Positions 1-26,811 are shown, numbered from the stretch's first letter. The stretch is 64,000 bases of DNA from Gammaproteobacteria bacterium (GCA_965221955.1 CBDCTA010000005.1:1-64000); one strand, 5' to 3'. The notes: generated by a model from the sequence alone, not told the origin. Numbers and translations: made by a program.

Positions 1-572
1 GAGAAGGTTTGCTATTTGTACATAATGCGCTGGTAGGAATAAATGCCCGAGAAAAAATTAAAATTGGTGTAAGTGGCCAAATCATAACTGGATTTGGTAT
101 GGCTTTTAACATGGCATTAGGTGCAGACTGGTGTAATTCTGCACGCGGATTTATGTTTGCCCTTGGATGTGTACAGTCACAAAAATGTCATACCGATAGA
201 TGTCCTACAGGTATCGCAACTCAAAATCCCTATCGACAACGTGCACTGGTTGTTAATGATAAAGCGAATAGGGTTATTAATTTTCATCACCATACAGTAA
301 GAGCATTAGGTGAAATGGTTGCAGCTGCAGGTTTATACCATCCCACTGAGTTGTGCCCAAGAAATATATGTTATCGTTTGACGCCTACTACAATACGCAC
401 TGCGGACCGTGTGTTTAATTTTCTTCAACCAGGGGAACTATTAGAAGGAACAGACAAACCAGGTTATCGCGAGTTTTGGAAAATGGCTACAGCCGATAGT
501 TTTAATCCTGCTCAGGATTGGAAAGAAACCCAAATTAAATTTAATCCTTTGTTACAAAGCACAATAATGTAA
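1..572 (+). CDS. FMN-binding glutamate synthase family protein, C-terminal part (5' end outside window)
   Basis: ALGAD-x-CNSARGFMFALGC and CHTDRCPTGIATQ motifs of the Glu_synthase FMN / 3Fe-4S region; frame open to the window edge. Confidence 0.88.
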   Translation, partial: EGLLFVHNALVGINAREKIKIGVSGQIITGFGMAFNMALGADWCNSARGFMFALGCVQSQKCHTDRCPTGIATQNPYRQRALVVNDKANRVINFHHHTVRALGEMVAAAGLYHPTELCPRNICYRLTPTTIRTADRVFNFLQPGELLEGTDKPGYREFWKMATADSFNPAQDWKETQIKFNPLLQSTIM

Positions 573-675
573 TGAATGCAGAATTAGGTAAGAGTATTCA
601 TCTCCCATTCATGAAATATCTCATAAAAAAGATGCAATTTTCATAGTCTACGATTCGTATATTCAAATCTTTATA

Positions 676-776
676 ATGTCCGCTATTGGCCGAAAGCAGA
701 CATAAAATAGGATCAAATAGGTTGGAATCAATTACATACAATAGGAAAATGACTGCTAACGACCCAAAGCGGATAT
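676..776 (+). repeat. Inter-cassette element 1 (A 676-703, B 749-776)
   Basis: ATGTCCGCTATTGGCCGAAAGCAGACAT...GGTTGGAATCAA...ATGACTGCTAACGACCCAAAGCGGATAT. Confidence 0.95.
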
Positions 777-794
777 TTTTATAGTGGGTAGGTT

Positions 795-1499
795 ATGAAC
801 AAAATTGCTTCGTCAATATTAATATTTTCTGTTATCTCCTGTAGTACACCACATCAACAGACCGAGATTTCTAAAGAAGATGATGTTCGTATTGGTCATG
901 TTAAGGGTTGCTGGTTATCGGAATACACATCCGCTGAGGAATCAAAATATGTCCTTCCATATCCAGTTGGCAAAGAATATGTAATTGGCCAGGGCAATTG
1001 TGGAATGTTCACTCATCAACCAGCTTCAATTATGAAAGGAGGATCTGTAGGTGACATACAGTTTGCCTATGATTTTTCAATGCCAATTGGTGACGAAATC
1101 GTTGCTGTAGCGGATGGAGTTGTCATTAATGTAGACGAACTTTGGGATGACAAAACTAATGACGTTACAAAACAAAACTTTATTGCTATAGAACATGATG
1201 ATGGAAGAGTCTCCGCCTATGTGCATTTAACGAGTTTTGGAAGTTTTGTTGAGATCGGAGACAAAGTTGAGCAAGGTCAAATTATTGGTAAAAGCGGTCA
1301 ATCAGGTTACGCACTTGACCCACATTTACATTTTTCTATATTTGAAAAGGATTATAAAGATTGCAATATTAGGGCAATTGAGTACCCCAAAGATTCAATA
1401 CTACATGGGTGTAAGACTGTTCCAGTTACATTTAAAAATGCCGAGCCATTAGATACACCTCCAATAGAAGGCAGAACATATAAAGCAGTACAAAACTAG
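795..1499 (+). CDS. Cassette 1: M23 family metallopeptidase lipoprotein
   Basis: Lipobox-like VISC; YxHL and PHLHF M23 motifs. Confidence 0.85.
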   Translation: MNKIASSILIFSVISCSTPHQQTEISKEDDVRIGHVKGCWLSEYTSAEESKYVLPYPVGKEYVIGQGNCGMFTHQPASIMKGGSVGDIQFAYDFSMPIGDEIVAVADGVVINVDELWDDKTNDVTKQNFIAIEHDDGRVSAYVHLTSFGSFVEIGDKVEQGQIIGKSGQSGYALDPHLHFSIFEKDYKDCNIRAIEYPKDSILHGCKTVPVTFKNAEPLDTPPIEGRTYKAVQN

Positions 1500-1507
1500 A
1501 AATATAG

Positions 1508-1607
1508 ATGTCCGCTTATGGCCGAAAGCGGACAAATTAAAGGGGAAACTGGCTGGATTCAATAAACTATAAACATAATATGACTGCTTACGACCCAAAG
1601 CGGACAT
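1508..1607 (+). repeat. Inter-cassette element 2 (A 1508-1535, B 1580-1607)
   Basis: Same A/B consensus, 44-nt linker. Confidence 0.95.
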
Positions 1608-1647
1608 TAAGAGCAGATATTGGAACTAGTAAGGAGATGTAGTTTTC

Positions 1648-2001
1648 GTGAGTAAAATCGTAATTATTGTAAATATTTTATTACTCTCTATTTCAAATTT
1701 AGCAACAGCCTCAAACTTTCAAAATGATTGTGAGGTGTTGAATAATGATTCATTAGAATGTTCTTTTAGTCTTGATCGTGATCATCCAACTATGTTGATA
1801 AAGGCAGAAAGTCGTTCTGTTTTAGATTCATACAAGCATTCTATTAGAAACACTACAAATGACTTTTGCAAAAATACAAAACATTCGTGGGTTATGTACA
1901 TACTTTTAGATGAGAGCCTTGTTAGTGGCGAAATGTGTAATGGTAAAAAAGCTAAGTGGATAACTTACGAGAAATTTAAAAAAGATGGGTTGGACTTTTA
2001 G
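1648..2001 (+). CDS. Cassette 2: small secreted hypothetical protein
   Basis: AAGGAG RBS upstream, signal peptide, 4 Cys; fills the space between two elements. Confidence 0.75.
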   Translation: MSKIVIIVNILLLSISNLATASNFQNDCEVLNNDSLECSFSLDRDHPTMLIKAESRSVLDSYKHSIRNTTNDFCKNTKHSWVMYILLDESLVSGEMCNGKKAKWITYEKFKKDGLDF

Positions 2002-2003
2002 CA

Positions 2004-2114
2004 ATGTCCGCTTATGACCGAAAGCAGACATAAATTAAGCCATTTGAGGGGATTTCAGGTTGGAATCAATGAAACATAAACTTAATATGACTGCTTACGA
2101 CCCAAAGCGGACAT
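2004..2114 (+). repeat. Inter-cassette element 3 (A 2004-2031, B 2087-2114)
   Basis: Same consensus; A core variant TGACCG; 55-nt linker. Confidence 0.95.
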
Positions 2115-2158
2115 TTATCAAAATTTTTATTCATTATTCTTTTGGCAAAAAGTAGTCA

Positions 2159-2464
2159 ATGAAATATTCGAAAAAAATCGTAATTAAATTCGTACTATTT
2201 ATTTATTTTGTATATTGCGTTTATTTAATTACATTTGCTGGAATAGATTTTAAAGCGCTCGATAATGAAAATTTGTTTATAGCAGTGAGTTATATAGTTG
2301 GATTAATTCTGTGTTTACCTGCGAACATTTGTATATTAGTTCCTGAAAGTTGGATTAGTACAACATTTTCATCTGACTTATGTGTATTTATAATAGGGTT
2401 AATTGTTGCAACATTTGTGGTTTTTGTTGCGTCTAAAATCATCTATTCTCATAAAACCGAATGA
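2159..2464 (+). CDS. Cassette 3: small membrane protein
   Basis: About 3 hydrophobic segments; TGA stop lies inside the next A site. Confidence 0.7.
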   Translation: MKYSKKIVIKFVLFIYFVYCVYLITFAGIDFKALDNENLFIAVSYIVGLILCLPANICILVPESWISTTFSSDLCVFIIGLIVATFVVFVASKIIYSHKTE

Positions 2465-2561
2465 TCGCTATTGGCCGAAAGCGGACAAAATAAGGGACAC
2501 AATGTGTTGGAATCAATTAATAACACGTTCAAAATGACTGCTAACGACCCAAAGCGGACAT
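2461..2561 (+). repeat. Inter-cassette element 4 (A 2461-2488, B 2534-2561)
   Basis: Same consensus, 45-nt linker. Confidence 0.95.
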
Positions 2562-2588
2562 TTTATTTATTTAATAGATCCAATAACG

Positions 2589-2971
2589 ATGCATAAAATA
2601 GCTAATGCTCTCGTTTTACTTGTAGTTTTATCAACCAGTCCCTTAGCCGATGAAGGCAATTCATCAGATAAAGTACGTTTCTATGATTTTCGCGAACTTG
2701 AAACTGCAACAATTAAAAAGGCTGCCTCCAAGGATCTGTATATGGTGTGACAATAATATCTTACGGTAACGATGAAAAATCACGGTCATATTACGAAGTC
2801 TTACAATCACTAACCAGCGAAGAATTTAAGATTCAAGCTTTATTTAGAGCAAAGAAAGATAGCTATGGTAGTGCAGATGTATATTTCAATGGGTACGAGT
2901 ATAAAAACGTTACTGATATTGATCAGCTAACTAAAATACTTGTTTTTGGAATGAAAAATATTTACATCTAA
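2589..2971 (+). pseudogene. Cassette 4: secreted hypothetical protein, frameshifted (or sequencing indel)
   Basis: ATG 2589 gives signal peptide MHKIANALVLLVVLSTSPLA; adding one A to the A5 run at 2715-2719 joins it to ORF 2747-2971. Confidence 0.65.
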
Positions 2972-2993
2972 ACTTCGATGGTTCTAGTATCTA

Positions 2994-3104
2994 ATGTCCG
3001 CTATTGGCCGAAAGTGGACGTAAATTAAACCGTTAAAGGGAGAGTCTGGTTGGATTCAATAAATAAAACATTCAAAATGACTGCTTACGACCCAAAGGGG
3101 ACAT
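2994..3104 (+). repeat. Inter-cassette element 5 (A 2994-3021, B 3077-3104)
   Basis: Same consensus, 55-nt linker. Confidence 0.95.
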
Positions 3105-3134
3105 TAATTTCAGGCAAAAATTAGGGGATATATT

Positions 3135-3631
3135 TTGAAACCAGAAAAATAATTGCTGTAGTAGTAAGACTATTTGCAATTGCATTACTTCTTACTATTG
3201 TTCGAGAATTAATTACAGCATTATGGGTAGTAAATGATTCGGTAAGTCTACGCCAGTATGGATTTATTTTTTTAGTCAGCGGGTTAGTTATAGTTGTATC
3301 TATTTTTCTATGGAACTTCCCTCTTACAATCGCGAAAAGAATTTACCCATTTGCTCTAGAAGACGAGCCTAAACATACATTTAACTCTGATGACTATTAT
3401 CAACTTGGTTTTATCCTATTGGGTATGTATCTATTATTTTATGTTATTTCTGATGGTGTGTTTTGGATTGCATTTACACTATATAGTGGTGAAGAGAAGA
3501 TGTATTCACCGCTGAAAGCTTTAGAGAATAAAGCTTCAATTGTTGCTACTTTTGTTGAGCTTGCTATCGCTCTTTATCTAATATTTGGAGCAAAGGGAAT
3601 CACTAATGCAATAAAGACGATCAGAAAGTGA
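3135..3631 (+). pseudogene. Cassette 5: multi-pass membrane protein, frameshifted near the start (or sequencing indel)
   Basis: AGGGGA RBS then TTG AAA CCA GAA AAA TAA; one extra A in run 3145-3149 gives MKPEKIIAVVVRLFAIALL..., open through ORF 3419-3631. Confidence 0.65.
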
Positions 3632-3641
3632 TTTTAGTATT

Positions 3642-3742
3642 ATGTCCGCTATTGGCCGTAAGCAGACATAAAATGGGACACAGTTGGTTGGAATCAAAGA
3701 ACTACAAATTTAAAATGTCCAGTATCGACCCAAAGCGGACAT
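3642..3742 (+). repeat. Inter-cassette element 6 (A 3642-3669, B 3715-3742)
   Basis: Same consensus, 45-nt linker. Confidence 0.95.
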
Positions 3743-3777
3743 TGGCTAATCGCTTGAAATGAAATTTAAATTGAATT

Positions 3778-4110
3778 GTGAATCCTTTATTTAACCGAAA
3801 TTTATTGGTTGTAACTACATTATTTGGTTTGGCATTAGTTGCATGTATGTTTGCTTGGGACTTTTCATCAAATGACCCAAGGATGGCAGATAATGTTATT
3901 TCAACTGGTGAATTTAATTGGTGGGAGACATTTATAATTTTAGTCGGAATACCATCAATTTTATTAGTTTGGGTTTATTCATTTAAACATGCATTCTCTA
4001 ATGGACGTAGAAAATGGGGTGTACTTATATTTATGTTATGGCCGCTAGCATTTTTCTACGCATGGTTTATTGCTGATGCTGTGATAGATTCTTCAAGAGA
4101 ATCTGGATGA
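3778..4110 (+). CDS. Cassette 6: small membrane protein
   Basis: 3 hydrophobic segments; TGA stop is part of the next A site (ATGACCGCT). Confidence 0.72.
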   Translation: MNPLFNRNLLVVTTLFGLALVACMFAWDFSSNDPRMADNVISTGEFNWWETFIILVGIPSILLVWVYSFKHAFSNGRRKWGVLIFMLWPLAFFYAWFIADAVIDSSRESG

Positions 4111-4206
4111 CCGCTATTGGCCGAAAGCAGACATAATTAGGAAATAACAGGTTGGATTCAATAATTTACAGACTTAAAATGGCTGCTAACGACCCAAAGC
4201 GGACAT
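4107..4206 (+). repeat. Inter-cassette element 7 (A 4107-4134, B 4179-4206)
   Basis: Same consensus, 44-nt linker. Confidence 0.95.
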
Positions 4207-4220
4207 CGGCATAAATCAAA

Positions 4221-4535
4221 ATGGCTACCTACATGAAAACGAAGTTAATCGTTTTGACAGTAACTATTTGGGTTATTTTTCCAATTGTTGTGGGAATCGT
4301 TTATTCATTATTTGAAAGAGAGGATTTGGATATTGCATTGATGAATAATGTTATTAGAGTTGGAATATTAATATTCGCACTACTATCAGCTCTAACACTA
4401 TATCTCTGCACCAAATTTTTACTCAAGACAAGTAAAAAAAATACTGATAAGGCCGTCTCTATTGTTTGTATGTTAGCTACATTGGCAGCAGTCGTTTTAT
4501 TTACACCTGCAATGTTGAATAATTTTATTGTTTAA
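4221..4535 (+). CDS. Cassette 7: small membrane protein
   Basis: 3 hydrophobic segments; fills the inter-element space. Confidence 0.7.
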   Translation: MATYMKTKLIVLTVTIWVIFPIVVGIVYSLFEREDLDIALMNNVIRVGILIFALLSALTLYLCTKFLLKTSKKNTDKAVSIVCMLATLAAVVLFTPAMLNNFIV

Positions 4536-4550
4536 TAGGAAAATAGTTAA

Positions 4551-4637
4551 ATGTCCGCTATTGGCCGAAAGGAGACATCAGGTTGGAAATATCAAAACAA
4601 AGTAGTTTAATGACCGCTAACGACCCAAAGCGGACAT
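4551..4637 (+). repeat. Inter-cassette element 8 (A 4551-4578, B 4610-4637), shortest copy
   Basis: 31-nt linker that still keeps GGTTGGAA 29 nt before B. Confidence 0.95.
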
Positions 4638-4674
4638 TAATCCCGTTTTCCAAAATTAAGTTGATGGTGTAAAA

Positions 4675-5067
4675 ATGATTGTGTTAGAAGTTAAATTGAA
4701 TGGAGAGCTCATCGCTAAAGCTGGTAAAAGTGATTTATGTGTATTGAACACAATAGTTGATGGTGTTGGTGTTTTAGGTGCTGATTCTGCCGGAACTAAA
4801 TCAGAAAAAGAAGGATATAAGACTAGTCTGAGTGTGGGTGGGCTAGGTGTAACAGCTGAGGATGAACCTGGCACACATTACAGTTGGGTTGGTAAACAGA
4901 TAATTAATGTAGGTGATGAGGTATCTATTAAATTTCTAGAATCAGAAAATGCACATGATCCTAAAATCGTAAGAGCATATACACCAGAGGAAAAAGAAAA
5001 GGAAATGAAACTACGCTGGGAAACATCACGGGACTACTATTTAAAATACAAAGACAAATATGAATAG
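4675..5067 (+). CDS. Cassette 8: soluble hypothetical protein
   Basis: 130-aa ORF bounded by elements 8 and 9. Confidence 0.75.
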   Translation: MIVLEVKLNGELIAKAGKSDLCVLNTIVDGVGVLGADSAGTKSEKEGYKTSLSVGGLGVTAEDEPGTHYSWVGKQIINVGDEVSIKFLESENAHDPKIVRAYTPEEKEKEMKLRWETSRDYYLKYKDKYE

Positions 5068-5070
5068 CAA

Positions 5071-5181
5071 ATGTCCGCTATTGGCCGAAAGCAGACATTA
5101 TTAAGATGTTACTAGGACAAGCTGGGTTGGAACAATCAAATTATTCATTCAAAATGACCGCTAACGACCCAAAGCGGACAT
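5071..5181 (+). repeat. Inter-cassette element 9 (A 5071-5098, B 5154-5181)
   Basis: Same consensus, 55-nt linker. Confidence 0.95.
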
Positions 5182-5211
5182 TAGGTTAATCAATTTAAAT
5201 GGGAGGTTGGA

Positions 5212-5787
5212 TTGAATAATTCAAAAAAGACATTTCCTTAAATATCTTTTTGGAGCATTTTTGCAGGTGTTGGGGCAACCCTTGCTGCAATACCTTTTTT
5301 TAGATTTCTCTCACCCAAAGATTATTTAAGTGAAGAATATTCTAAAGATATAAATATTTCTAAACTTAAGCCTGGCCAGGTAATGTCTATTGTTTGGCAC
5401 AATAAGCCAATTTACATTTTGAAACGAGATCAAGATGCTATCAATAGTTTAGAAATTGATAATCCTAAATTGCGTGATACGGCTTCAAGTCAGTCTAAAC
5501 AGCCGGAAAATGCAAAGAATACCTTTCGCTCAATTAAGCCAGAAATACTTGTTGTAGAGAGTATTTGCACACATAAAGGATGCTCTGTTGCGTATGACCC
5601 TCCTGGGAAAAACCGTTTCCCCAAGGACCATGTGTTATCAAAATATGGCGGGTTTTATTGTGCCTGTCATGGGGCTGTTTATGATGCTGCTGGTCGCGTA
5701 TTTAAAAACAATCCTGCACCGCATAATTTAGTTGTGCCTCAGCACGAATTTTTAAATGAACACACAATCAGATTTAGTCACAATTGA
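5212..5787 (+). CDS. Cassette 9: Rieske 2Fe-2S protein, PetA (bc1 iron-sulfur subunit)-like; 5' end disrupted by in-frame TAA 5239-5241
   Basis: CTHKGC and CACHG Rieske boxes, GRVFK-x2-PAPxNL; GGAGG RBS before TTG 5212; N-terminal TM segment upstream of ORF 5383. Confidence 0.85.
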
Positions 5788-5809
5788 ATCAATTATGATT
5801 AATTTAGAA

Positions 5810-5910
5810 ATGTCCGCTATTGGCCGTAAGCGGACATAATTAGGGATGCAATGTGTTGGAATCAATAAATTATAAGTTCAAAATGTCTGCTAACGACCCA
5901 AAGCGGACAC
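5810..5910 (+). repeat. Inter-cassette element 10 (A 5810-5837, B 5883-5910)
   Basis: Same consensus, 45-nt linker. Confidence 0.95.
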
Positions 5911-5946
5911 TTCAGGATCAGTTAATAATATTCAGATAAATCAGAA

Positions 5947-6195
5947 ATGAATCCTATTCCACTTATTATTGTTTGGATAATTCTATTCGCTGTTGTAATA
6001 GGATATGTGGTTTATCGTTTACTTACAGACAAAGAAAAAAGTGGCAAAAAACATTGGCTTTACCCTTTAAATAGCAATCCTGGTGATCCCATGTTCCCCA
6101 AACCAGGCAATATATTTGGCTGGGTAATTTACCTGCTGTTATTACTTCCTATAATTTACGTGATTGGAATGTTAGTAAATGAAAATTTATTCTAG
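5947..6195 (+). CDS. Cassette 10: small 2-TM membrane protein
   Basis: Two hydrophobic segments; bounded by elements 10 and 11. Confidence 0.7.
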   Translation: MNPIPLIIVWIILFAVVIGYVVYRLLTDKEKSGKKHWLYPLNSNPGDPMFPKPGNIFGWVIYLLLLLPIIYVIGMLVNENLF

Positions 6196-6219
6196 TTGGA
6201 TTAACCGCACAAAATATAA

Positions 6220-6330
6220 ATGTCTGCTATTGGCCGAAAGCTGACATAAATTAAGCCACTGAGAGGAATTACAGGTTGGAATCTTTAAAATACTTATTCA
6301 ATATGACCGCTAACGACCCAAAGCGGACAT
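6220..6330 (+). repeat. Inter-cassette element 11 (A 6220-6247, B 6303-6330)
   Basis: Same consensus, 55-nt linker. Confidence 0.95.
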
Positions 6331-6370
6331 TTTCGAGAAGTAGAATTTGTTTGAATAAGTCGTATAGCAC

Positions 6371-6739
6371 TTAACAATCCCTGTATCCTTTCTTTTTCTT
6401 ACACGTTAAAGCTAATTTTTTAGCCTCTTCGATTTCAGAAGGAGTCATATTTGCAGTTATTTTTCTTAAAGCTTCATCTGCTGTCGCGCCTAACCCTTGT
6501 TCTACCGCAAAGCTCACCCACATATATGCATATTGATTGTCCTGGGGTACGCCATTGCCTGTGTGATACGCTTTGCCAATTTTTAATTGACTAATCGCTG
6601 CACCATTCTCTGCAGATTTAAGCGCTTTGAACGCATCTTTTTCCGCTCTCTTAGCAGCCATTTCTTCGGGTGATGAGCAACCTGATAGAACTAAAACGAG
6701 AGCAAGCAAGGCTAGAAAAATGCGTAATTTAGGATTCAT
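6371..6739 (-). CDS. Sel1-repeat lipoprotein (inverted relative to the array)
   Basis: Lipobox LSGC; Sel1-like AENG...YHTGNGVPQD...AYMW; GGAG RBS. Confidence 0.82.
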   Translation of the reverse strand: MNPKLRIFLALLALVLVLSGCSSPEEMAAKRAEKDAFKALKSAENGAAISQLKIGKAYHTGNGVPQDNQYAYMWVSFAVEQGLGATADEALRKITANMTPSEIEEAKKLALTCKKKKGYRDC

Positions 6740-6859
6740 AAATAAGGCTCCATTTCAGCGGGCATGATGATAAATGTTGGCGACAGTACACTATATAGCC
6801 ATTATATGCGAATGTATTTCTATGATGAATGATGTGGATAAGCTAATATTTTCTTTAAC

Positions 6860-6887
6860 TTAAGCGCTAACGACCCAAGGCGGACAT
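6860..6887 (+). repeat. Lone degenerate B site
   Basis: TTAAGCGCTAA-CGACCC-AAGGCGGACAT. Confidence 0.85.
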
Positions 6888-6990
6888 TCGCATATAGTTA
6901 TCATGCTAATACTAAATTTTATACGGACTGATATTTTATAACTAACCTAAAAAATTAGTGTATTGGTTTAGATATTATTATTAGCCGCAT

Positions 6991-7680
6991 TTATATCAGC
7001 GTATTAAGTTCTGATAATGATTTGGTAACAAGATCGGGCTTATAAGAAAGCCGTTCCGAGACATGGTCGTAGCGATTTACCCATATAGAGTTAAACCCGC
7101 ATGCTGAAGCTCCAGCTATATCCCAAGAGTTAGAAGATATAAAACAAATTTTATTTCTAGCTAATGCAAGTTGTTCGCCCATAAATTCATATACTGCTGG
7201 AGATGGTTTATATGTACGAATTAATTCTGTGGAATAGATACCATCTATTAAATGATCAACACCAACTTGTTTTAAAGTAGTGCTGAGTATCTGAGGTGGG
7301 CCATTAGAGAGTACTGCTGTTGTTATTCCATTTTCCTTTAGTAATGTAAGAGCATTCTTTGCATCTTGATAGCAGTCTAATTTTGAATGTTCTAGTAGCT
7401 TGCTTTTAATTTTCTCATCGTCAAATCCATACACATCACAAGCGAAATCAAGTGTGTCTTTTCGAATCTTTTCATAATTCACATACTTATTCATTAGGCT
7501 TAGCAAAGAAGAATATTGTAGGCGTTTAGTCAACCACAATTTATAGATTTCTTGAATGTTTTCACCAAGTTGTTCACTATATTCTAAAAATGGTAAATAT
7601 GGATCAAGAATTAAGCCATAGGCATTAAATATATAAGCTTTAATGTTTTTCATATTTTTCTTCAATAATTTGGTTGGCAA
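6991..7680 (-). CDS. Haloacid dehalogenase type II (HAD) family protein; start more likely at ATG 7653
   Basis: FNAYG (motif I with Asp replaced by Asn), LSNG, YKPSP, SSNSWD. Confidence 0.85.
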   Translation of the reverse strand: MPTKLLKKNMKNIKAYIFNAYGLILDPYLPFLEYSEQLGENIQEIYKLWLTKRLQYSSLLSLMNKYVNYEKIRKDTLDFACDVYGFDDEKIKSKLLEHSKLDCYQDAKNALTLLKENGITTAVLSNGPPQILSTTLKQVGVDHLIDGIYSTELIRTYKPSPAVYEFMGEQLALARNKICFISSNSWDIAGASACGFNSIWVNRYDHVSERLSYKPDLVTKSLSELNTLI

Positions 7681-8093
7681 AGTAGACCGCTATGCGAGAT
7701 TGTCCTAATTAAAATAATATACATCTTGAGCTACTAAATTTTAGGTTGAGTACTCGTCTGGTTATAGTCAAAGAATATATATTTATTGAAAGCAAATACC
7801 TCGTGAGGTCTGTGCGAGGATACTAGAAGCTACAGAAACATTTAATGTAACTTCCACTATTTCGTTTATACAATAACTTTGTTTTGAAGTATAGGTAATG
7901 ATCTGAGGCAGTTAAACTGAAAATCAATATATAGCTGATATAGAACAAAGAAGAGTAGTTTATGAAAGTTTATTCTCTAATATCTTCATAGTTCACTTTA
8001 AGACGAGACAAACAATTAAATGATTGAAACTGTATTCATAGAAATGGTAGGCGCGTCAGCTGTTAACTTTAAATTTTTAAAGAGGTTCATCTG

Positions 8094-8585
8094 ATGATTC
8101 ATGAAGTTGCTGGAGATATTTTATTGACAAAAGCAAAAGCTATTGCTCATGGTGTGGCCCCAAATGACCATTTTAAGAATGGCCTAGCCCTTGAGTTGAG
8201 AGAACAATGGCCAGCAATGGCAAAAGATTTTCGTCATTACGCTAATCAGTCACACCCAAAAACTGGAGAGATTTGGGTTTGGAGTGGTGTGGGTGGGGTG
8301 CGTATTCTCAACTTACTAACACAGGAAGGAGGACACGAACACGGTGCCAAACCAGGTAGAGCCACACTGCCGAATGTCAATCACTGTTTGCGAAGATTGC
8401 GACATGAGCTTGAAAAGGGTGAGATTGCTAGTCTTGCATTACCAAAATTAGCCACTGGTGTTGGCGGTCTGAAGTGGAAAGAAGTGTCCCCATTAATCCA
8501 ACAGCATTTGAGTGATTTATCAATTCCTATATATATCTATACAACTTATCTCAAAGGTCAGAAAGCAAACGAAATAGGCATGTAA
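8094..8585 (+). CDS. Macro domain (Appr-1-p processing) protein
   Basis: GDILL, HGVAPNDHF, LALPKLATGVGGL macro-family motifs. Confidence 0.85.
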   Translation: MIHEVAGDILLTKAKAIAHGVAPNDHFKNGLALELREQWPAMAKDFRHYANQSHPKTGEIWVWSGVGGVRILNLLTQEGGHEHGAKPGRATLPNVNHCLRRLRHELEKGEIASLALPKLATGVGGLKWKEVSPLIQQHLSDLSIPIYIYTTYLKGQKANEIGM

Positions 8586-8598
8586 TTAAACTATTATA

Positions 8599-8626
8599 AT
8601 GTCCGCTATTGGCCGAAAGCGGACAT
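8599..8626 (+). repeat. Terminal A site of the array
   Basis: ATGTCCGCTAT-TGGCCG-AAAGCGGACAT, full consensus. Confidence 0.95.
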
Positions 8627-8742
8627 TTCGAGTTCTCTTAACTTTAATCAGATACGTCATCCATGTTGTAAACTTTGTGAGTGCATCCATGCAGTCGTAC
8701 AATTTCTGTGCTTCCGTCATACATGGAGGCCGAAGCAGACAT
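8627..8742 (+). repeat. Conserved array-end sequence with NCATCCNTGN mini-palindromes, then a degenerate half A site (8728-8742)
   Basis: 8627-8692 aligns without gaps to the reverse complement of 25694-25759. Confidence 0.8.
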
Positions 8743-8757
8743 TATTAATCAGTAAGA

Positions 8758-10878
8758 TTAATAATTCCGATATACGAAAGAACTCGAATTTCTTGCTTCT
8801 AGAAGTTTTGTGAGGTCAGTGGCGATATGTGCAGTTTCGTCTAATAATACATCAATAAAAGCTTCATCATCGTCCAACTTATTAAGATTTTCCTCTGTAT
8901 CTTTCAGTAAGTTTTCATACTCGGAGCGTGTTGACTCAAGCCGTTTATATTCTTCTTTTCTAGTGGACTCTAGCAAAGAAACTGTTTTTTGATTTCTAAC
9001 ATCATAGTCCAGTTGAAATATTTCAATTAAAGAATTGAATTTTTCATCTTCGCGTATTCTGCTTTTGTGTTTTTCAGCTGTTTGGTTAATGATCTGTACG
9101 TCTACATCGCCATAATGATGTTTAACAGGGGAGATCGTGCTTGCAGGTAGCGCATTTTTTAATGCGCGTTCACCGTATGCTTCGTCTTCAGATAAGGTAT
9201 TGAAATCGATGTCTGGAACAACACCTTGATGTTGAGTGCTGCTGCCGTTTATACGAAAATATTGCGCTATGGTTGCCTTTAATTGACCAAGCTTTTCGTC
9301 GTCACTCGTGCTGAAATTATTTAAATCTACAAGTTGTTGTACGGTGCCTTTACCAAATGTAGTTTCACCTGCGACGATGCCGCGTCGATAATCCTGAATT
9401 GCGCTGGCTACAATTTCAGAGGCCGATGCACTATAGCGATCAACTAAAACCACTAACGGTCCATAATATGAAATATCAGAGTCACGATCACGATGTACTT
9501 CAATATGGCCACTTGAGTCTTGTACTTGCACGATCGGGCCTTCATCTATAAATAGGCCAGCCAACTGAGTCGCTTCTGTCAGTGAGCCGCCCCCGTTTCC
9601 GCGCAAGTCTAAAATTAATGCATCAATTTTTTGTTTTTTAAGCTCTGTGAGCAAGTTGTTCACATCGCGAGTGGTGCTTCTATAATCTTTGTCACCACGT
9701 TGGTATGCAGCAAAATCGATGTAAAAAGTGGGTACATCGATCACTCCAATTTTATATTGTTGTGCGCCTTCTTCTATTTCGATGACTTCACTCTTGGCAG
9801 CTTGTTCTTCTAATTTAATTTTGTCACGAGTAATTTGAATTTCTTTTATCTTTGCGGCTTGACCTTCATCACCCGGTAATATTTGCAAATTTACTTTGGT
9901 GCCTTTAGCGCCACGAATTAATGCAACCACTTCTTCCAAGCGCCAACCCACTACATCTTTAAATTCTTTTTCGTTTTCTTGTGAGATACCTACAATCCTG
10001 TCAGTACCGTGTAATAAATCACTTAAATCTGCTGGCCCGCCAGGGATGATTTTTTCTACTACTGTATATTCGCCATCTGTTCTCAATAACGCACCAATAC
10101 CTTCTAATGAAAGGCTCATTCGAATTTCAAAGTTTTTAGAAGTTCTTGGTGATAAATAGTTAGTATGAGGTTCTAAAGTACTTGCAAACGCATTGATGAA
10201 AAGTTGATAGACATCTTCAGCATCTACTTGTGTACTGCGTTTAGCAATACCTCTGTACCGCTTTTCTAATGTCTCTTTGATTTCTGAAGGTTTTTTATCT
10301 GCGAGTCTTAAAGTTAGTACATCGTTTTTTACACGCTTACGCCAGATTTCATTTAATTCATTACTGTTCTGAGCCCATGCAGATTCTGAACGATCTATGA
10401 TTAACTCTTCATCAATTTTAAAATTAAATTTATCTTCTAACAAATCTAAGGCAAATAATACACGTTCATCTACTCGTGCTTGATATAAGCGGAACATTTG
10501 GAAAGGAGCATTTAAATCTGTTCTAGAAATTGCATCATCTAGTTTGAAACGAAAGATTTGAAAACTATCAATATCCTTTTGATAGAAATAGCTGCGATTT
10601 GGATCTAATGCTTCGAGATAAGCATTTAATATTTGAGCAGAAAGCGTGTTGTTGATATTAAATTCTTTATAGTGGTACTTATCTAAAAAATGCGTGATCA
10701 GTTTAGTGGCACGATTATGTTGTTTTCCAGGACTAAGAATTTCGCTTGTATTACTATAGCTAACGCTGCTTGCAGCAATCAGCGTTAATGCGGTGAGACA
10801 GAAAAGGATTAATTTTGAAGAGAATTTTTCCAAAATAGAATGCTTAATATTGATGTAATTAATGTGCAGTTTAGACAA
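8758..10878 (-). CDS. prc: Carboxy-terminal processing (tail-specific) protease, S41
   Basis: PDZ GIGA, DLRGNGGG, SASASEI, TFGKGTVQ. Confidence 0.93.
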   Translation of the reverse strand: MSKLHINYINIKHSILEKFSSKLILFCLTALTLIAASSVSYSNTSEILSPGKQHNRATKLITHFLDKYHYKEFNINNTLSAQILNAYLEALDPNRSYFYQKDIDSFQIFRFKLDDAISRTDLNAPFQMFRLYQARVDERVLFALDLLEDKFNFKIDEELIIDRSESAWAQNSNELNEIWRKRVKNDVLTLRLADKKPSEIKETLEKRYRGIAKRSTQVDAEDVYQLFINAFASTLEPHTNYLSPRTSKNFEIRMSLSLEGIGALLRTDGEYTVVEKIIPGGPADLSDLLHGTDRIVGISQENEKEFKDVVGWRLEEVVALIRGAKGTKVNLQILPGDEGQAAKIKEIQITRDKIKLEEQAAKSEVIEIEEGAQQYKIGVIDVPTFYIDFAAYQRGDKDYRSTTRDVNNLLTELKKQKIDALILDLRGNGGGSLTEATQLAGLFIDEGPIVQVQDSSGHIEVHRDRDSDISYYGPLVVLVDRYSASASEIVASAIQDYRRGIVAGETTFGKGTVQQLVDLNNFSTSDDEKLGQLKATIAQYFRINGSSTQHQGVVPDIDFNTLSEDEAYGERALKNALPASTISPVKHHYGDVDVQIINQTAEKHKSRIREDEKFNSLIEIFQLDYDVRNQKTVSLLESTRKEEYKRLESTRSEYENLLKDTEENLNKLDDDEAFIDVLLDETAHIATDLTKLLEARNSSSFVYRNY

Positions 10879-24653: not shown

Positions 24654-25691
24654 TTGGCTTTATTAACGATGCAAGCAAAAACACAAATTCAAGATACTTT
24701 ATCACGACCTATTCGTGATCTAAGAATTTCGGTTACGGATCGTTGTAATTTTCGTTGCACCTATTGTATGCCGAAAGAAGTGTTCAATTCAGAATATGAG
24801 TTTTTACGCAGAGATGATTTGCTTAGTTTCGAAGAAATCGCTCGAATATCAAAAATTTTCGCAAATATAGGCGTCAAAAAAATTCGTTTAACTGGGGGGG
24901 AGCCCTTATTACGAAAGAATCTTCCAGTTTTAATTAAGCAACTATCAAATATTGATGGAATTGAAGATATCAGTTTAACCACTAATGGTGTTCTTCTAAC
25001 TACTGAAGTTGCGCAGCAATTAAAAGATGCAGGCTTGAAACGCATTACCATTAGTTTAGATGCGCTGGATGACGAAACATTTAAAGCGATAAGCGATGTA
25101 AATTTTAATGTAGAAAAAGTATTAGCCTCTGTAGAACATGCTCAGAACGCAGAGCTTGACCCCATTAAAATTAACATGGTGGTGAAAAAAGGTATTAATG
25201 AACATTCTATTTTGCCAATGGCGAAACATTATCACGGCAGTGGCGTTATTTTACGTTTCATTGAATTCATGGATGTGGGTAGCACCAATCAATGGCAAAT
25301 GGATGATGTGTTTTCTGCTAAAGAAATTGCAAATGTAATTCATCAAGAGTTGCCTATTGAACCTGCAGAAGCTAATTATCACGGTGAAGTGGCAAAACGC
25401 TGGCAATATAAAGATGGTGGTGGAGAAATTGGAATTATTTCTTCTGTGACGCAACCATTTTGCCAAAGCTGCACACGCGCAAGGCTTTCTGCAGAAGGCA
25501 AACTCTATACTTGTTTATTTGCTACACAAGGTAAAGATTTACGCCATCTTGTTCGCGAACAAGCAGACGATAAACATATTCAAGATGTCATTACTGCAAT
25601 TTGGAAAAAACGCAATGATCGTTACTCAGAACTACGAACTTCTGAAACCGTCTTGCTCCCAAAAGTAGAAATGTCTTATATTGGTGGGTAA
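24654..25691 (+). CDS. moaA: GTP 3',8-cyclase MoaA (start probably ATG 24669)
   Basis: CNFRCTYC radical-SAM motif, FCQSCTRAR, C-terminal MSYIGG. Confidence 0.96.
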   Translation: MALLTMQAKTQIQDTLSRPIRDLRISVTDRCNFRCTYCMPKEVFNSEYEFLRRDDLLSFEEIARISKIFANIGVKKIRLTGGEPLLRKNLPVLIKQLSNIDGIEDISLTTNGVLLTTEVAQQLKDAGLKRITISLDALDDETFKAISDVNFNVEKVLASVEHAQNAELDPIKINMVVKKGINEHSILPMAKHYHGSGVILRFIEFMDVGSTNQWQMDDVFSAKEIANVIHQELPIEPAEANYHGEVAKRWQYKDGGGEIGIISSVTQPFCQSCTRARLSAEGKLYTCLFATQGKDLRHLVREQADDKHIQDVITAIWKKRNDRYSELRTSETVLLPKVEMSYIGG

Positions 25692-25759
25692 GCGCATGGA
25701 TGCGCGCATATGATGCCCATCAGGGATGATGTAACAGATTAAAGTTAGGTATTTTCAAA

Positions 25760-25787
25760 ATGTCCGCTTTCGGCCATAAGCGGACAT
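25760..25787 (-). repeat. A site of the solo cassette
   Basis: Reverse complement ATGTCCGCTTA-TGGCCG-AAAGCGGACAT. Confidence 0.95.
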
Positions 25788-25828
25788 TTTAGGTTACTAG
25801 TATTTATAATTAGTTATCTACTTAGAAA

Positions 25829-26116
25829 CTATAAAATATGTCGACGAATTAAAATCCAAGCAAGCGGCAGTAACGCAATCAAAGCCGATATTATTAATGA
25901 AGTTCTAAACGTGCCTTCTCGCGCTTCAATAATACACTGATATACAGCTATTCCTGCAATTACAAAGCTGAGCAACACCGGTATGAGAAACAAAGGTGCT
26001 GTAGACCATGCACCCCATCCATCATAATTGCGAATATATAATTCAATTCCAACAAGAACTGAAACAGGAATCAAGCAAAGAAATTCTAGTATATGCTTTC
26101 GGCCAATAGCGGTCAT
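25829..26116 (-). CDS. Solo-cassette cargo: small 3-TM membrane protein
   Basis: Hydrophobic ORF with ATGA overlap to the upstream gene. Confidence 0.72.
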   Translation of the reverse strand: MTAIGRKHILEFLCLIPVSVLVGIELYIRNYDGWGAWSTAPLFLIPVLLSFVIAGIAVYQCIIEAREGTFRTSLIISALIALLPLAWILIRRHIL

Positions 26117-26754
26117 TGATTAACTGGTTTCCAACGATACCAAGAAATTACTTTCCATTTATCTGCAAACAATAAATTCTGACTTATTCTCTTTGTCTCA
26201 CTTTCCATGATCAACCATCCATTTTGGCTTTTACTAAACTTTCGAGTTTCTGATGAACTATGATTGGCTAATACAATAGTATCAACGTTAAATCGTTTCT
26301 TTAAAATTAAGTTCCCATTCTCACAATGGAAGTCACCATTTTTAATACTTAATGTCTGAGTTCCTTTAGGGGAATTACGTTCCCACATTTTAATACTTAG
26401 CTGATCGTGGTTTGGCTGTTGCAGCTCAGCTACCGTACCAGACAAAACCACTTCACATCTGCTCTGCCATGTCCATCTTTTGCTATGACCTGTCCTATAA
26501 TAATCTTCAAATTCAGGCATTTTTTTCGATAAAAGTTGAAAATCTAAACGATAGCAGGAAAGGATTTGAGCTTTTGGGATTTCAGCATCCACATCATAAA
26601 ATCCTGAAACATTGGGGCATTGATTATTTTTATTTTCGTTTTCTAATTTTGACCACTCTATAGGATACTCAACGATTACATCCTCCATATACATGGAACA
26701 TGAGGTCAGTAAAATAATATGCATATAGATGATTGAAATTGAAATCACACGCAT
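26113..26754 (-). CDS. Solo-cassette cargo: hypothetical lipoprotein
   Basis: Lipobox LTSC; starts 29 nt after the B site. Confidence 0.75.
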   Translation of the reverse strand: MRVISISIIYMHIILLTSCSMYMEDVIVEYPIEWSKLENENKNNQCPNVSGFYDVDAEIPKAQILSCYRLDFQLLSKKMPEFEDYYRTGHSKRWTWQSRCEVVLSGTVAELQQPNHDQLSIKMWERNSPKGTQTLSIKNGDFHCENGNLILKKRFNVDTIVLANHSSSETRKFSKSQNGWLIMESETKRISQNLLFADKWKVISWYRWKPVNQ

Positions 26755-26783
26755 GTTTCAAGAGCCAATCTTTAGTGTGCTAA

Positions 26784-26811
26784 ATGTCCGCTTTGGGTCG
26801 TTAAAGGTCAT
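26784..26811 (-). repeat. B site of the solo cassette, abutting the moaB stop codon
   Basis: Reverse complement ATGACCTTTAA-CGACCC-AAAGCGGACAT. Confidence 0.93.

Follow-up and report, generated by a model that had tools for sequence, protein, structure and literature searches.

Within the first 64 kb of contig C5 of a gammaproteobacterial genome assembly, the whole stretch analysed here and called the window, positions 676-6330 are occupied by eleven full copies of an element of 87-111 bp which separate ten single-gene cassettes, each holding one plus-strand open reading frame (ORF) of 70-234 aa. Each element consists of two 28-bp sites, termed A and B, which are joined by a linker, and we lean towards reading the region as an array of mobile single-gene cassettes bounded by one 28-bp palindrome in two orientations. 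The ten-cassette repeat array as such is real and lies far above chance: a degenerate 28-mer describing A and B matches 35 places in the window (both strands, up to 3 mismatches) versus none in 100 shuffles, and a repeat search of the window returned the hairpin core 23 times and the B half together with the linker 11 times. Among systems that collect single genes as cassettes and reshuffle them, integrons, which matter greatly for adaptation and drug resistance, are to our knowledge the only one that is well understood. Here an integron-like outcome, namely arrays of unrelated small genes differing between co-existing strains, is encountered with different sites and without the integron integrase IntI, and this in streamlined marine bacteria nearly devoid of transposases as well as in cultured soil and water Xanthomonadales. 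In the following, G000 designates the source genome, labels such as G001 or G503 the other genomes compared, C plus a number a contig of the genome named, and L plus a number a sequence locus.

The original prediction made for this window had described an integron-like array with one co-oriented gene between successive copies of a site other than attC, and this description is borne out by the eleven elements and the ORFs between them. As it had also claimed, the stop codons are found close to the next A site, i.e. 2-24 nt upstream of A or 4 nt within it (2464 and 4110), in all ten cassettes. Start codons, for which it had given a distance of 14-44 nt past B, obey this rule in seven cassettes if they are taken from the longest ORF; in the three cassettes following the B sites at 2561, 3104 and 5181 the distance from B to the start of that ORF is 185-314 nt. 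The genes are unrelated to one another: at curated Pfam cut-offs two of the ten are assigned to a family (M23 peptidase and Rieske), two give sub-threshold matches and six give none, several of the products being small membrane proteins by eye. The elements lack attC ends, and a crude scan reveals no complementary RYYYAAC...GTTRRRY pair in window 1-9000. Moreover, intI is present neither beside the array nor anywhere else in G000, where the best IntI score is far below the cut-off with Xer-level matches only.

The palindrome, its doublets and their genomic census

The 28-bp palindrome is composed of outer arms of 7 nt (ATGTCCG and CGGACAT) and an asymmetric core of 14 nt. A, with the consensus ATGTCCGCTATTGGCCGAAAGCGGACAT and a core reading CTATTGGCCGAAAG, follows the stop codon of a gene, and B, reading ATGACYGCTWACGACCCAAAGCGGACAT, is located about 30 nt upstream of the start codon, after a conserved linker motif, CAGGTTGGAAT. 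The entire element starts with ATGTCCGCT and ends with AGCGGACAT, AAC/GTT core triplets being absent from its ends. The linker, which holds a TTGGAA-N17-TAAAAT-like motif, occurs in discrete lengths of 31, about 45 and about 55 nt. Since the core of B approximates the reverse complement of the core of A, A-linker-B forms an inverted doublet; of 10 loop positions, 7 agree in the B form that is frequent in other taxa and fewer in the form found in G000. Judged by these cores and arms, A and B represent a single palindrome used in both orientations, and the doublet, consisting of two inverted simple sites, is therefore attC-like or REPIN-like in build (REPIN: doublet of repetitive extragenic palindromic (REP) sequences forming a hairpin). 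The left arm of A can pair with the right arm of B without any mismatch, and upon folding of the single top strand with DNA parameters one long imperfect A:B hairpin containing unpaired bases, not a pair of local hairpins, represents the minimum-energy structure in 9 of the 11 elements (z -1.5 to -6.0). Rfam returned a single chance match in window 1-9000 (23 bits versus a gathering score of 113) and no match in fourteen other loci comprising 52,613 bases.

A profile search of the complete G000 assembly (2.69 Mb in 29 contigs, about 38% G+C) yielded 177 sites (86 A and 91 B) with 58 distinct A-linker-B doublets. Scatter over the genome, in the manner of an ordinary REP sequence or miniature inverted-repeat transposable element (MITE), had been named in the original prediction as speaking against a cassette system, and scatter is indeed found: the sites form 44 clusters on 19 of the 29 contigs, 30 of them with at least two sites and 8 with at least seven, and include spacers of housekeeping genes. 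The scattered copies, however, still bracket an extra small gene each and hence are no ordinary REP or MITE. Of 64 B-to-A units, 58 have a largest ORF that is co-oriented; the median interior measures 476 nt, 90% of which is filled by the ORF, with a median start 31 nt after B and a median stop 9 nt before A. B-gene-A also occurs singly, and many of these singletons are wedged among co-directional housekeeping genes. A dispersed uptake signal, considered as a further identity of the arm, was rejected because about 88% of the occurrences of its 8-mer fall within annotated palindromes.

A second repeat, X, has 62 matches in G000 and comprises two stem-loops with NGGA loops, for which compensatory changes are observed across 47 distinct copies (pair 5:14, for example, is AT in 17, GC in 13 and CG in 7). 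A copy of X lies at most 160 nt outside 23 of the 44 clusters, and all 32 such copies face inward, the 15 on the left being all plus and the 17 on the right all minus. In two cassette-free X..X copies a single A-like palindrome each is present beside the linker motif. From this arrangement X..X looks like a small palindromic MITE whose central palindrome would receive cassettes, that is, like a portable landing pad. Its loop and closing pairs resemble the CsrA/RsmA binding consensus, and X may also be a mobile CsrA-binding module.

Movement of the B-gene-A unit and points of exchange

Assembly G000 turned out to be a mixture of at least two closely related strains, with duplicate stretches of 97-99.8% identity in the contig pairs C14/C23, C10/C29, C8/C18, C11/C26, C12/C13 and C1/C25. 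In both pairs studied closely, C14/C23 and C10/C29, the differences between the strains are located at palindrome arrays; contigs C5 and C11 start at such arrays. The flanks shared by C14 and C23, with an lptG-like gene on one side and the gene of an RDD protein, xerD and dsbC on the other, are 99.0-99.5% identical, whereas 4 kb and 12.4 kb, respectively, of palindrome-bounded cassettes lie between them, only one cassette being common to both. C10 and C29:123-138 kb exhibit the same pattern of differing cassettes at a shared locus. The comparison of cassette content between strains proposed in the original prediction has thus provided differing sets between near-identical flanks at two loci.

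In addition, cassettes recur within the genome. Both the M23 peptidase cassette (window 756-1534) and window 3077-3669 have a second copy at another locus of G000 (Table 1). The likeness of recurring cassettes stops at the palindromes, the 45 nt upstream being 0.56-0.64 identical versus a background of 0.59, and the 45 nt and 25 nt flanking them resemble each other no more than random pairs do. Relatives lack units at corresponding sites. A whole block of 675 nt, X-motif-B-gene-A-X, which follows a stop codon in C4 of G000, is missing from G020 and G009, and larger inserts are present there in G008 and G016. Upstream of ampD, G020 possesses only X and an A-like palindrome, G000 one cassette (X-motif-B-gene-A), and G009 and G012 longer inserts. 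G016, the sole member of the genus without B matches (0), keeps at its xerD hot spot cassette genes between decayed palindrome remnants, among them a partial match to cassette 3 (window 2098-2333, 86% identity) flanked by decayed hairpins. These comparisons between loci, strains and relatives show that the B-gene-A unit behaves as a mobile one: its content differs at fixed loci, it recurs at unrelated loci and it is missing from the same sites in relatives.

The positions at which the DNA is exchanged are indicated by four observations. The palindrome that closes the C14/C23 arrays on the right agrees, in C23, with one C14 palindrome at nt 3-4 and with the other at nt 10, which places the switch between nt 4 and nt 10. 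The junction between the empty site of G020 and the filled one of G000 falls between ATGNNNG and CT, i.e. between nt 7 and nt 8. In at least 10 copies X is attached to a truncated palindrome precisely behind nt 21, which is the mirror position. Finally, at the left edge of the cassette common to C14 and C23 the core (nt 8-21) is exactly reverse-complemented between the strains, with the 7-nt arms and the downstream cassette unchanged. As these four observations agree on positions 7 nt inside the arms, a 7-14-7 build is assigned to the site, and the aligned junctions show exchange about 7 nt inside each palindrome arm, at the arm/core borders.

As a mechanism we propose that cassettes would leave as circles carrying one palindrome and that such a circle would enter an A-type palindrome by conservative site-specific recombination, the exchange taking place about 7 nt inside the arm. 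Entry would leave the core of the cassette on the left (B) and that of the landing pad on the right (A), and repeated entry together with recombination between units would build arrays. X..X would then constitute a portable docking site, the counterpart of attI, and the recombinase, which would act in trans rather than being encoded beside the arrays, might belong to the host or come with a transient element.

The pattern extends well beyond the source genome. The B 22-mer occurs in 32 of the 56 genomes of the family, in up to 120 copies, and in a search with one genome per species at least 123 stretches match a 22-mer exactly. Among the matches listed are Kiloniella, Lysobacter, Frateuria, Dyella, Noviluteimonas, Sphingomonas/Sphingomicrobium, Caulobacter, Onishia, Burkholderiales, Woeseiaceae, Nitrospinaceae, Nitrospirota and others, and exact 22-mers are present in alpha-, beta- and gammaproteobacterial, Nitrospinaceae and Nitrospirota records. 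Of 401 Gammaproteobacteria sampled evenly, 8 show the pattern, and high copy numbers are confined to this family and one other; in the Noviluteimonas family it is present in 9 of 61 genomes, three of them with many copies. Noviluteimonas caseinilytica JCM 32879 (G056, NZ_AP024545.1) harbours 64 palindromes (up to 2 mismatches), most of which belong to one 36-kb array, and G503 of the same family has 71 matches over many loci, the B orientations among those listed looking mixed. A plasmid collection searched with the B site gave weak partial matches only, and the public read sets with matches are labelled marine metagenome, no RNA data set being listed among them. Such a patchy spread fits horizontally moving DNA rather than a conserved housekeeping signal.

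More tentatively, and as a possibility rather than a probability, we suggest that these observations reflect a second, integrase-independent bacterial cassette system. In it, cassettes with a 7-14-7 palindrome would enter and leave copies of this palindrome spread on a MITE-like landing pad, an undiscovered or co-opted recombinase would cut at the arm/core borders, and patchy horizontal spread would have carried the system across Proteobacteria, Nitrospinota and Nitrospirota, with arrays of up to 36 kb in cultured Xanthomonadales. A dedicated or co-opted recombinase, if it exists, would add to the tool-like enzymes a new one directed at a defined target of 28 bp. X would then be a portable docking site, and the arrays would represent an unrecognised reservoir of accessory genes which annotation pipelines and tools of the IntegronFinder type probably miss.

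The coordinates of all features are compiled in Table 1. Past 6330 the pattern becomes looser, with a reversed Sel1 gene, a B remnant, a reversed HAD gene, a macro-domain gene and a lone A; in one metagenome contig 6865-7567 is retained with different DNA left of the B remnant. The two overlapping ORFs of cassette 4 possibly represent a single gene broken by a frameshift.

Table 1. Positions of elements, cassette genes and further features in the window and in other sequences
Feature	Sequence	Position	Strand	Description
Element 1	window	676-776	+	A 676-703, linker 45 nt, B 749-776
Cassette 1 gene	window	795-1499	+	234 aa, M23 peptidase; whole cassette duplicated at G000 C26:69643-70422, 86% identity
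Element 2	window	1508-1607	+	A 1508-1535, B 1580-1607
Cassette 2 gene	window	1648-2001	+	117 aa, N terminus signal-peptide-like (by eye), no Pfam family
Element 3	window	2004-2114	+	A 2004-2031, B 2087-2114, long linker (55 nt)
Cassette 3 gene	window	2159-2464	+	101 aa, membrane protein; stop within next A
Element 4	window	2461-2561	+	A 2461-2488, B 2534-2561
Cassette 4	window	2589-2971	+	two short overlapping ORFs in different frames, 2589-2750 and 2747-2971
Element 5	window	2994-3104	+	A 2994-3021, B 3077-3104
Cassette 5 gene	window	3419-3631	+	70 aa, membrane protein; cassette 3077-3669 recurs as singleton at G000 C17:16509-17104, 78% identity
Element 6	window	3642-3742	+	A 3642-3669, B 3715-3742
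Cassette 6 gene	window	3778-4110	+	110 aa, membrane protein; stop within next A
Element 7	window	4107-4206	+	A 4107-4134, B 4179-4206
Cassette 7 gene	window	4221-4535	+	104 aa, membrane protein
Element 8	window	4551-4637	+	shortest form: A 4551-4578, linker 31 nt, B 4610-4637
Cassette 8 gene	window	4675-5067	+	130 aa, no Pfam family
Element 9	window	5071-5181	+	A 5071-5098, B 5154-5181
Cassette 9 gene	window	5383-5787	+	134 aa, Rieske [2Fe-2S] domain
Element 10	window	5810-5910	+	A 5810-5837, B 5883-5910
Cassette 10 gene	window	5947-6195	+	82 aa, membrane protein
Element 11	window	6220-6330	+	A 6220-6247, B 6303-6330
Sel1-repeat lipoprotein gene	window	6371-6739	-	between B 6303-6330 and B remnant
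B remnant	window	6866-6887	+	22 nt, profile search
HAD hydrolase gene	window	6991-7680	-	Pfam; in atypical final stretch before terminal A
Macro-domain gene	window	8094-8585	+	Pfam; in atypical final stretch before terminal A
Terminal lone A	window	8599-8626	+	perfect match to A consensus
Repeat X	window	8638-8693	-	inward-facing, closes cluster on right; X search
Second small cluster	window	25691-26811	-	X 25691-25751 (+, inward), A 25760-25787, A 26094-26116, B 26784-26811 (A and B all minus), bracketing a 213-aa ORF
Recombinase of about 375 aa, copies or fragments	G000 C4	24716-25059, 43222-43494
Recombinase of about 375 aa, copies or fragments	L156	452-1579
Recombinase of about 375 aa, copies or fragments	L157	4460-5599, 9696-10832
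Noviluteimonas caseinilytica array	NZ_AP024545.1	2,774,503-2,810,770		B-ORF-A units, A-linker-B junctions
Noviluteimonas caseinilytica second small cluster	NZ_AP024545.1	269,106-271,608		same two palindrome types

G000 contains further repeated DNA. At a contig start (C22:1-1926) and near a contig end (C29:662144-663592) there are tandem repeats, perfect or nearly so, whose periods are about 339 nt and 294 nt. A gene encoding a 385-aa membrane protein, by eye similar to AlkB-type hydroxylases, exists in two 99.7% identical copies (C26:24485-25642 and C29:202067-203222), and the gene of a 449-aa periplasmic binding protein is duplicated as well.

Recombinase candidates and alternative explanations

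The original prediction had postulated a separate gene-capture system whose recombinase acts in trans or is encoded outside the window. The variation of cassette content among strains and species, with breaks at the palindromes, agrees with the former; no recombinase was found, and the enzyme is still a postulate. IntI (NCBIfam TIGR02249) scores above the cut-off in 5 of the 56 family genomes (G001, G016, G023, G033 and G037), uncorrelated with the site counts, and was rejected as the enzyme: G016 has IntI and 0 B sites, whereas the site-rich genomes G000, G006, G007, G008 and G015 are without it. Transposases of the RAYT (REP-associated tyrosine transposase) or IS200-type Y1 HUH kind (PF01797) are missing from G000, G006, G007, G008, G015 and G016 in a search whose positive control matched 6 of 14 known genomes, and IS110 and rve transposases are missing from G000, G008, G019 and G020. 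A large serine recombinase of about 545 aa is present as one copy in a phage-like block of G000 and as one copy each in G008 and G006; as G019 and G020 do not possess it, it is no consistent partner of the sites.

A divergent tyrosine recombinase of about 375 aa adjoins palindromes in G007 and G006 and gives family-level matches in 10 genomes, all of which bear sites. Intact genes exist in G026, in G007 and, twice, in G006, and broken ones in G000 and several relatives; the family has no specific NCBIfam match above the cut-off. Next to each intact copy read, a palindrome is found at most 37 nt from its stop codon. As the general enzyme it was rejected, one copy being an island integrase beside tRNA-Leu and several site-bearing genomes lacking it, as detailed below. 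In G019 only XerC-/XerD-like matches and broken pieces of this recombinase are observed. The flanks of the Noviluteimonas array contain no Pfam recombinase among 12 ORFs, and there is no PF00589 match within about 96 kb.

Several of our results weigh against the interpretation of the region as an array of mobile cassettes. Neither in the family nor in the other genomes tested was a recombinase found that tracks the sites. The enzyme of about 375 aa is absent from the complete genomes G008 and G020 (32-50 B sites) and from G056, G503, G513 and G060, site-rich genomes of other taxa, and in the complete genomes G019 and G020, with about 31 B sites each, there is no serine recombinase, rve or IS110 match, the general Pfam tyrosine-recombinase search having been applied to neither. 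The junction A-linker-B of the array is unlike the product of serial insertion into the terminal A, which predicts B-gene-B-gene-A, and the linker resembles the tail of X. No circular junction was seen, four public runs providing contigs which match mainly the repeats and whose flanks are unlike, with ambiguous back-pointing joints. Two boundaries, the B site of C10/C29 and the left edge of the cassette common to C14 and C23, differ at nt 23, i.e. 1-2 nt past the proposed cut, so that later mutation or a slightly different cut is needed, and we know of no recombinase that fits exchange points 14 bp apart. In addition, the pair counts of the 58 distinct doublets, 0.87 and 0.89 paired for the local hairpins versus 0.94 and 0.83 for the long hairpin, do not discriminate between the two folds.

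The main rival explanation regards the sites as regulatory hairpins of the REP, BIME (bacterial interspersed mosaic element) or REPIN type, which would spread or be retained for the sake of expression, for instance by protecting mRNA ends, serving as a protein-binding site or providing a weak promoter in the linker. The genes would be swapped by RecA-type or replication-slippage recombination between the repeats of about 100 bp, with no dedicated enzyme required, as has been suggested for the promoter-early stem-loop (PeSL) cassettes of T4-type phages. We consider it unlikely, yet with an appreciable share of the probability. BIMEs are built as Y-linker-Z, and the occurrence of A and B as the same palindrome in opposite orientation, separated by the three discrete linker lengths, speaks for this explanation, as do the position of the sites at gene ends and gene starts, the promoter-like motif in the linker, the near absence of transposases from the genomes and the failure of any recombinase to track the sites. 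On the other side stand the missing RAYT/Y1 gene in the six genomes tested and the rejection of a terminator or promoter role: promoter-like sites number 24 versus 37 expected, 1 of 11 linkers passes a lenient promoter rule, 0 plus-strand A sites are scored as terminator and no T run follows the plus-strand A hairpins. Furthermore, the G020/G000 junction shares only 6-7 nt on its left side, which is too little for RecA, fixed cut positions are indicated by the exact inversion of the 14-nt core and by the many copies in which X is fused behind nt 21, and cassette paralogues share nothing outside the palindromes. Even if homology drives the exchange, the element would explain where much of the strain-level variation in gene content is located in these genomes and why their assemblies break there.

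A considerably poorer case can be made for Xer-dependent modules in the manner of the pdif modules of Acinetobacter plasmids, in which the present 28-bp sites would be bound by host XerC and XerD and the cassettes would move by Xer recombination, and we regard this as improbable. The sites are likewise 28 bp long with inverted arms around a centre and flank each module in alternating orientation, XerC and XerD are present in G000, the richest hot spot adjoins xerD, and a universal enzyme would explain the absence of a linked recombinase. G000, however, possesses a canonical dif-like site at C4:59807 (-) with 4 mismatches to the E. coli dif motif, whereas no A or B site is within 7 mismatches of this motif, only C4:59807 and one weak place being so. 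The exchange window of nt 4-10 excludes the arm/centre border between nt 11 and nt 12 which is used by Xer, the flipping core measures 14 nt, and the sites are patchy among genomes all of which have Xer. The dif-like site is located about 5 kb from a small palindrome cluster (C4:64595-65817).

Slightly less probable still are mobile insertion cassettes (MICs), a reading in which a non-autonomous transposon with one passenger gene would have B and A as its terminal inverted repeats and be moved by a DDE transposase acting in trans. In its favour, B is an imperfect inverted repeat of A, single units occur at many loci, and the palindrome starts with TGT and ends with ACA, as many DDE transposon ends do. 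Against this, no rve or IS110 transposase is present in G000, G008, G019 and G020, the long dispersed repeats of G000 comprise only ordinary genes, the junctions and singletons read exhibit no target-site duplication, and insertion takes place into a pre-existing palindrome rather than into new targets.

Hardly any probability remains for atypical integron arrays (clusters of attC sites lacking integron-integrases, CALINs) with diverged attC sites and IntI encoded elsewhere or lost, since, for all the agreement in one co-oriented ORF per unit, in an inverted doublet folding as one imperfect hairpin with unpaired bases and in the existence of IntI genes in the family, IntI is distributed among the 56 genomes as described above, neither A nor B is found in the arrays next to intI of G023 and G001, the AAC/GTT core triplets are missing at the element ends and single units are found at dozens of loci.

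Ordinary integrons, with IntI above the cut-off and short divergent cassettes, occur in the same family at G023 C29:533-8018, G001 C9:390112-398293 and G016 C20:40013-41572; the crude scan for RYYYAAC..GTTRRRY gave matches in the intI loci L215 and L216 and none in the third intI locus, L214. As the integrons of the family share no sites with the palindrome system, two cassette systems coexist, for example in G023.

Comparison with known systems

The literature search, which covered PMC8352920 and PMC3733652 in part and had supplements outside its range, yielded no description of the palindrome or of such arrays. The pdif modules are alike in being discrete gene modules with 28-bp sites of alternating orientation and no module-borne recombinase. 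They differ in that the present sites show no dif likeness, that two sites plus a conserved linker lie between modules where pdif modules have one shared site, and that the units are chromosomal and found in many phyla. MICs such as MIC231 of Bacillus cereus resemble the cassettes in holding a passenger gene without transposase between inverted repeats, while here there is no matching insertion sequence or transposase, no target duplication, and entry occurs into an existing copy of the same palindrome. In the PeSL cassettes of T4-type phages a stem-loop accompanies a strong early promoter, and their shuffling has been ascribed to homologous recombination. Both there and here a short repeated stem-loop with a promoter-like motif brackets small orphan genes which are shuffled between close relatives; PeSL cassettes, however, belong to phages and carry a strong early promoter, whereas the motif of the linker is weakly promoter-like and the junctions look position-specific.

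Likeness to REP sequences, BIMEs and REPINs consists in short GC-rich palindromes in AT-rich intergenic DNA, their pairing in opposite orientation, discrete linkers, tens to hundreds of copies per genome and a position at gene ends. A REP tag GTAG is absent, the copies in G000 starting with ATGTCC and some copies in GC-rich genomes with CGTCC. In contrast to REP and REPIN, RAYT is missing from the six genomes tested, genes that can be swapped lie between the paired sites, and further copies of the gene together with its palindromes are found at other loci. We know of no REPINs that bracket swappable genes. None is described in PMC3733652 as far as it was covered, and the palindrome family was not found in the covered portion of its main text, the supplements being outside the search.

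With integrons the system has in common promoter-poor, co-oriented and unrelated single-ORF cassettes, a pair of inverted simple sites measuring 87-111 bp from end to end and folding as one imperfect hairpin, strain-variable content, exchange 6-7 nt inside the outer arm and an apparent separate docking site. In contrast, IntI and the RYYYAAC/GTTRRRY cores are absent here and each half-site is a 28-bp palindrome; about 44 loci per genome replace the one platform of an integron, the array usually ends in a lone A (half an element) instead of a full one, and the putative docking site resides on the dispersed MITE-like repeat X. The Xanthomonadales-type attC sites of aadA-type cassettes are unlike the palindromes described here. 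Sites of this type are discussed in the part of PMC8352920 that was covered. Cassette arrays on inverted-doublet sites are already known as a kind, and discovery of a dedicated enzyme could make the present arrays a system of a categorically new type.

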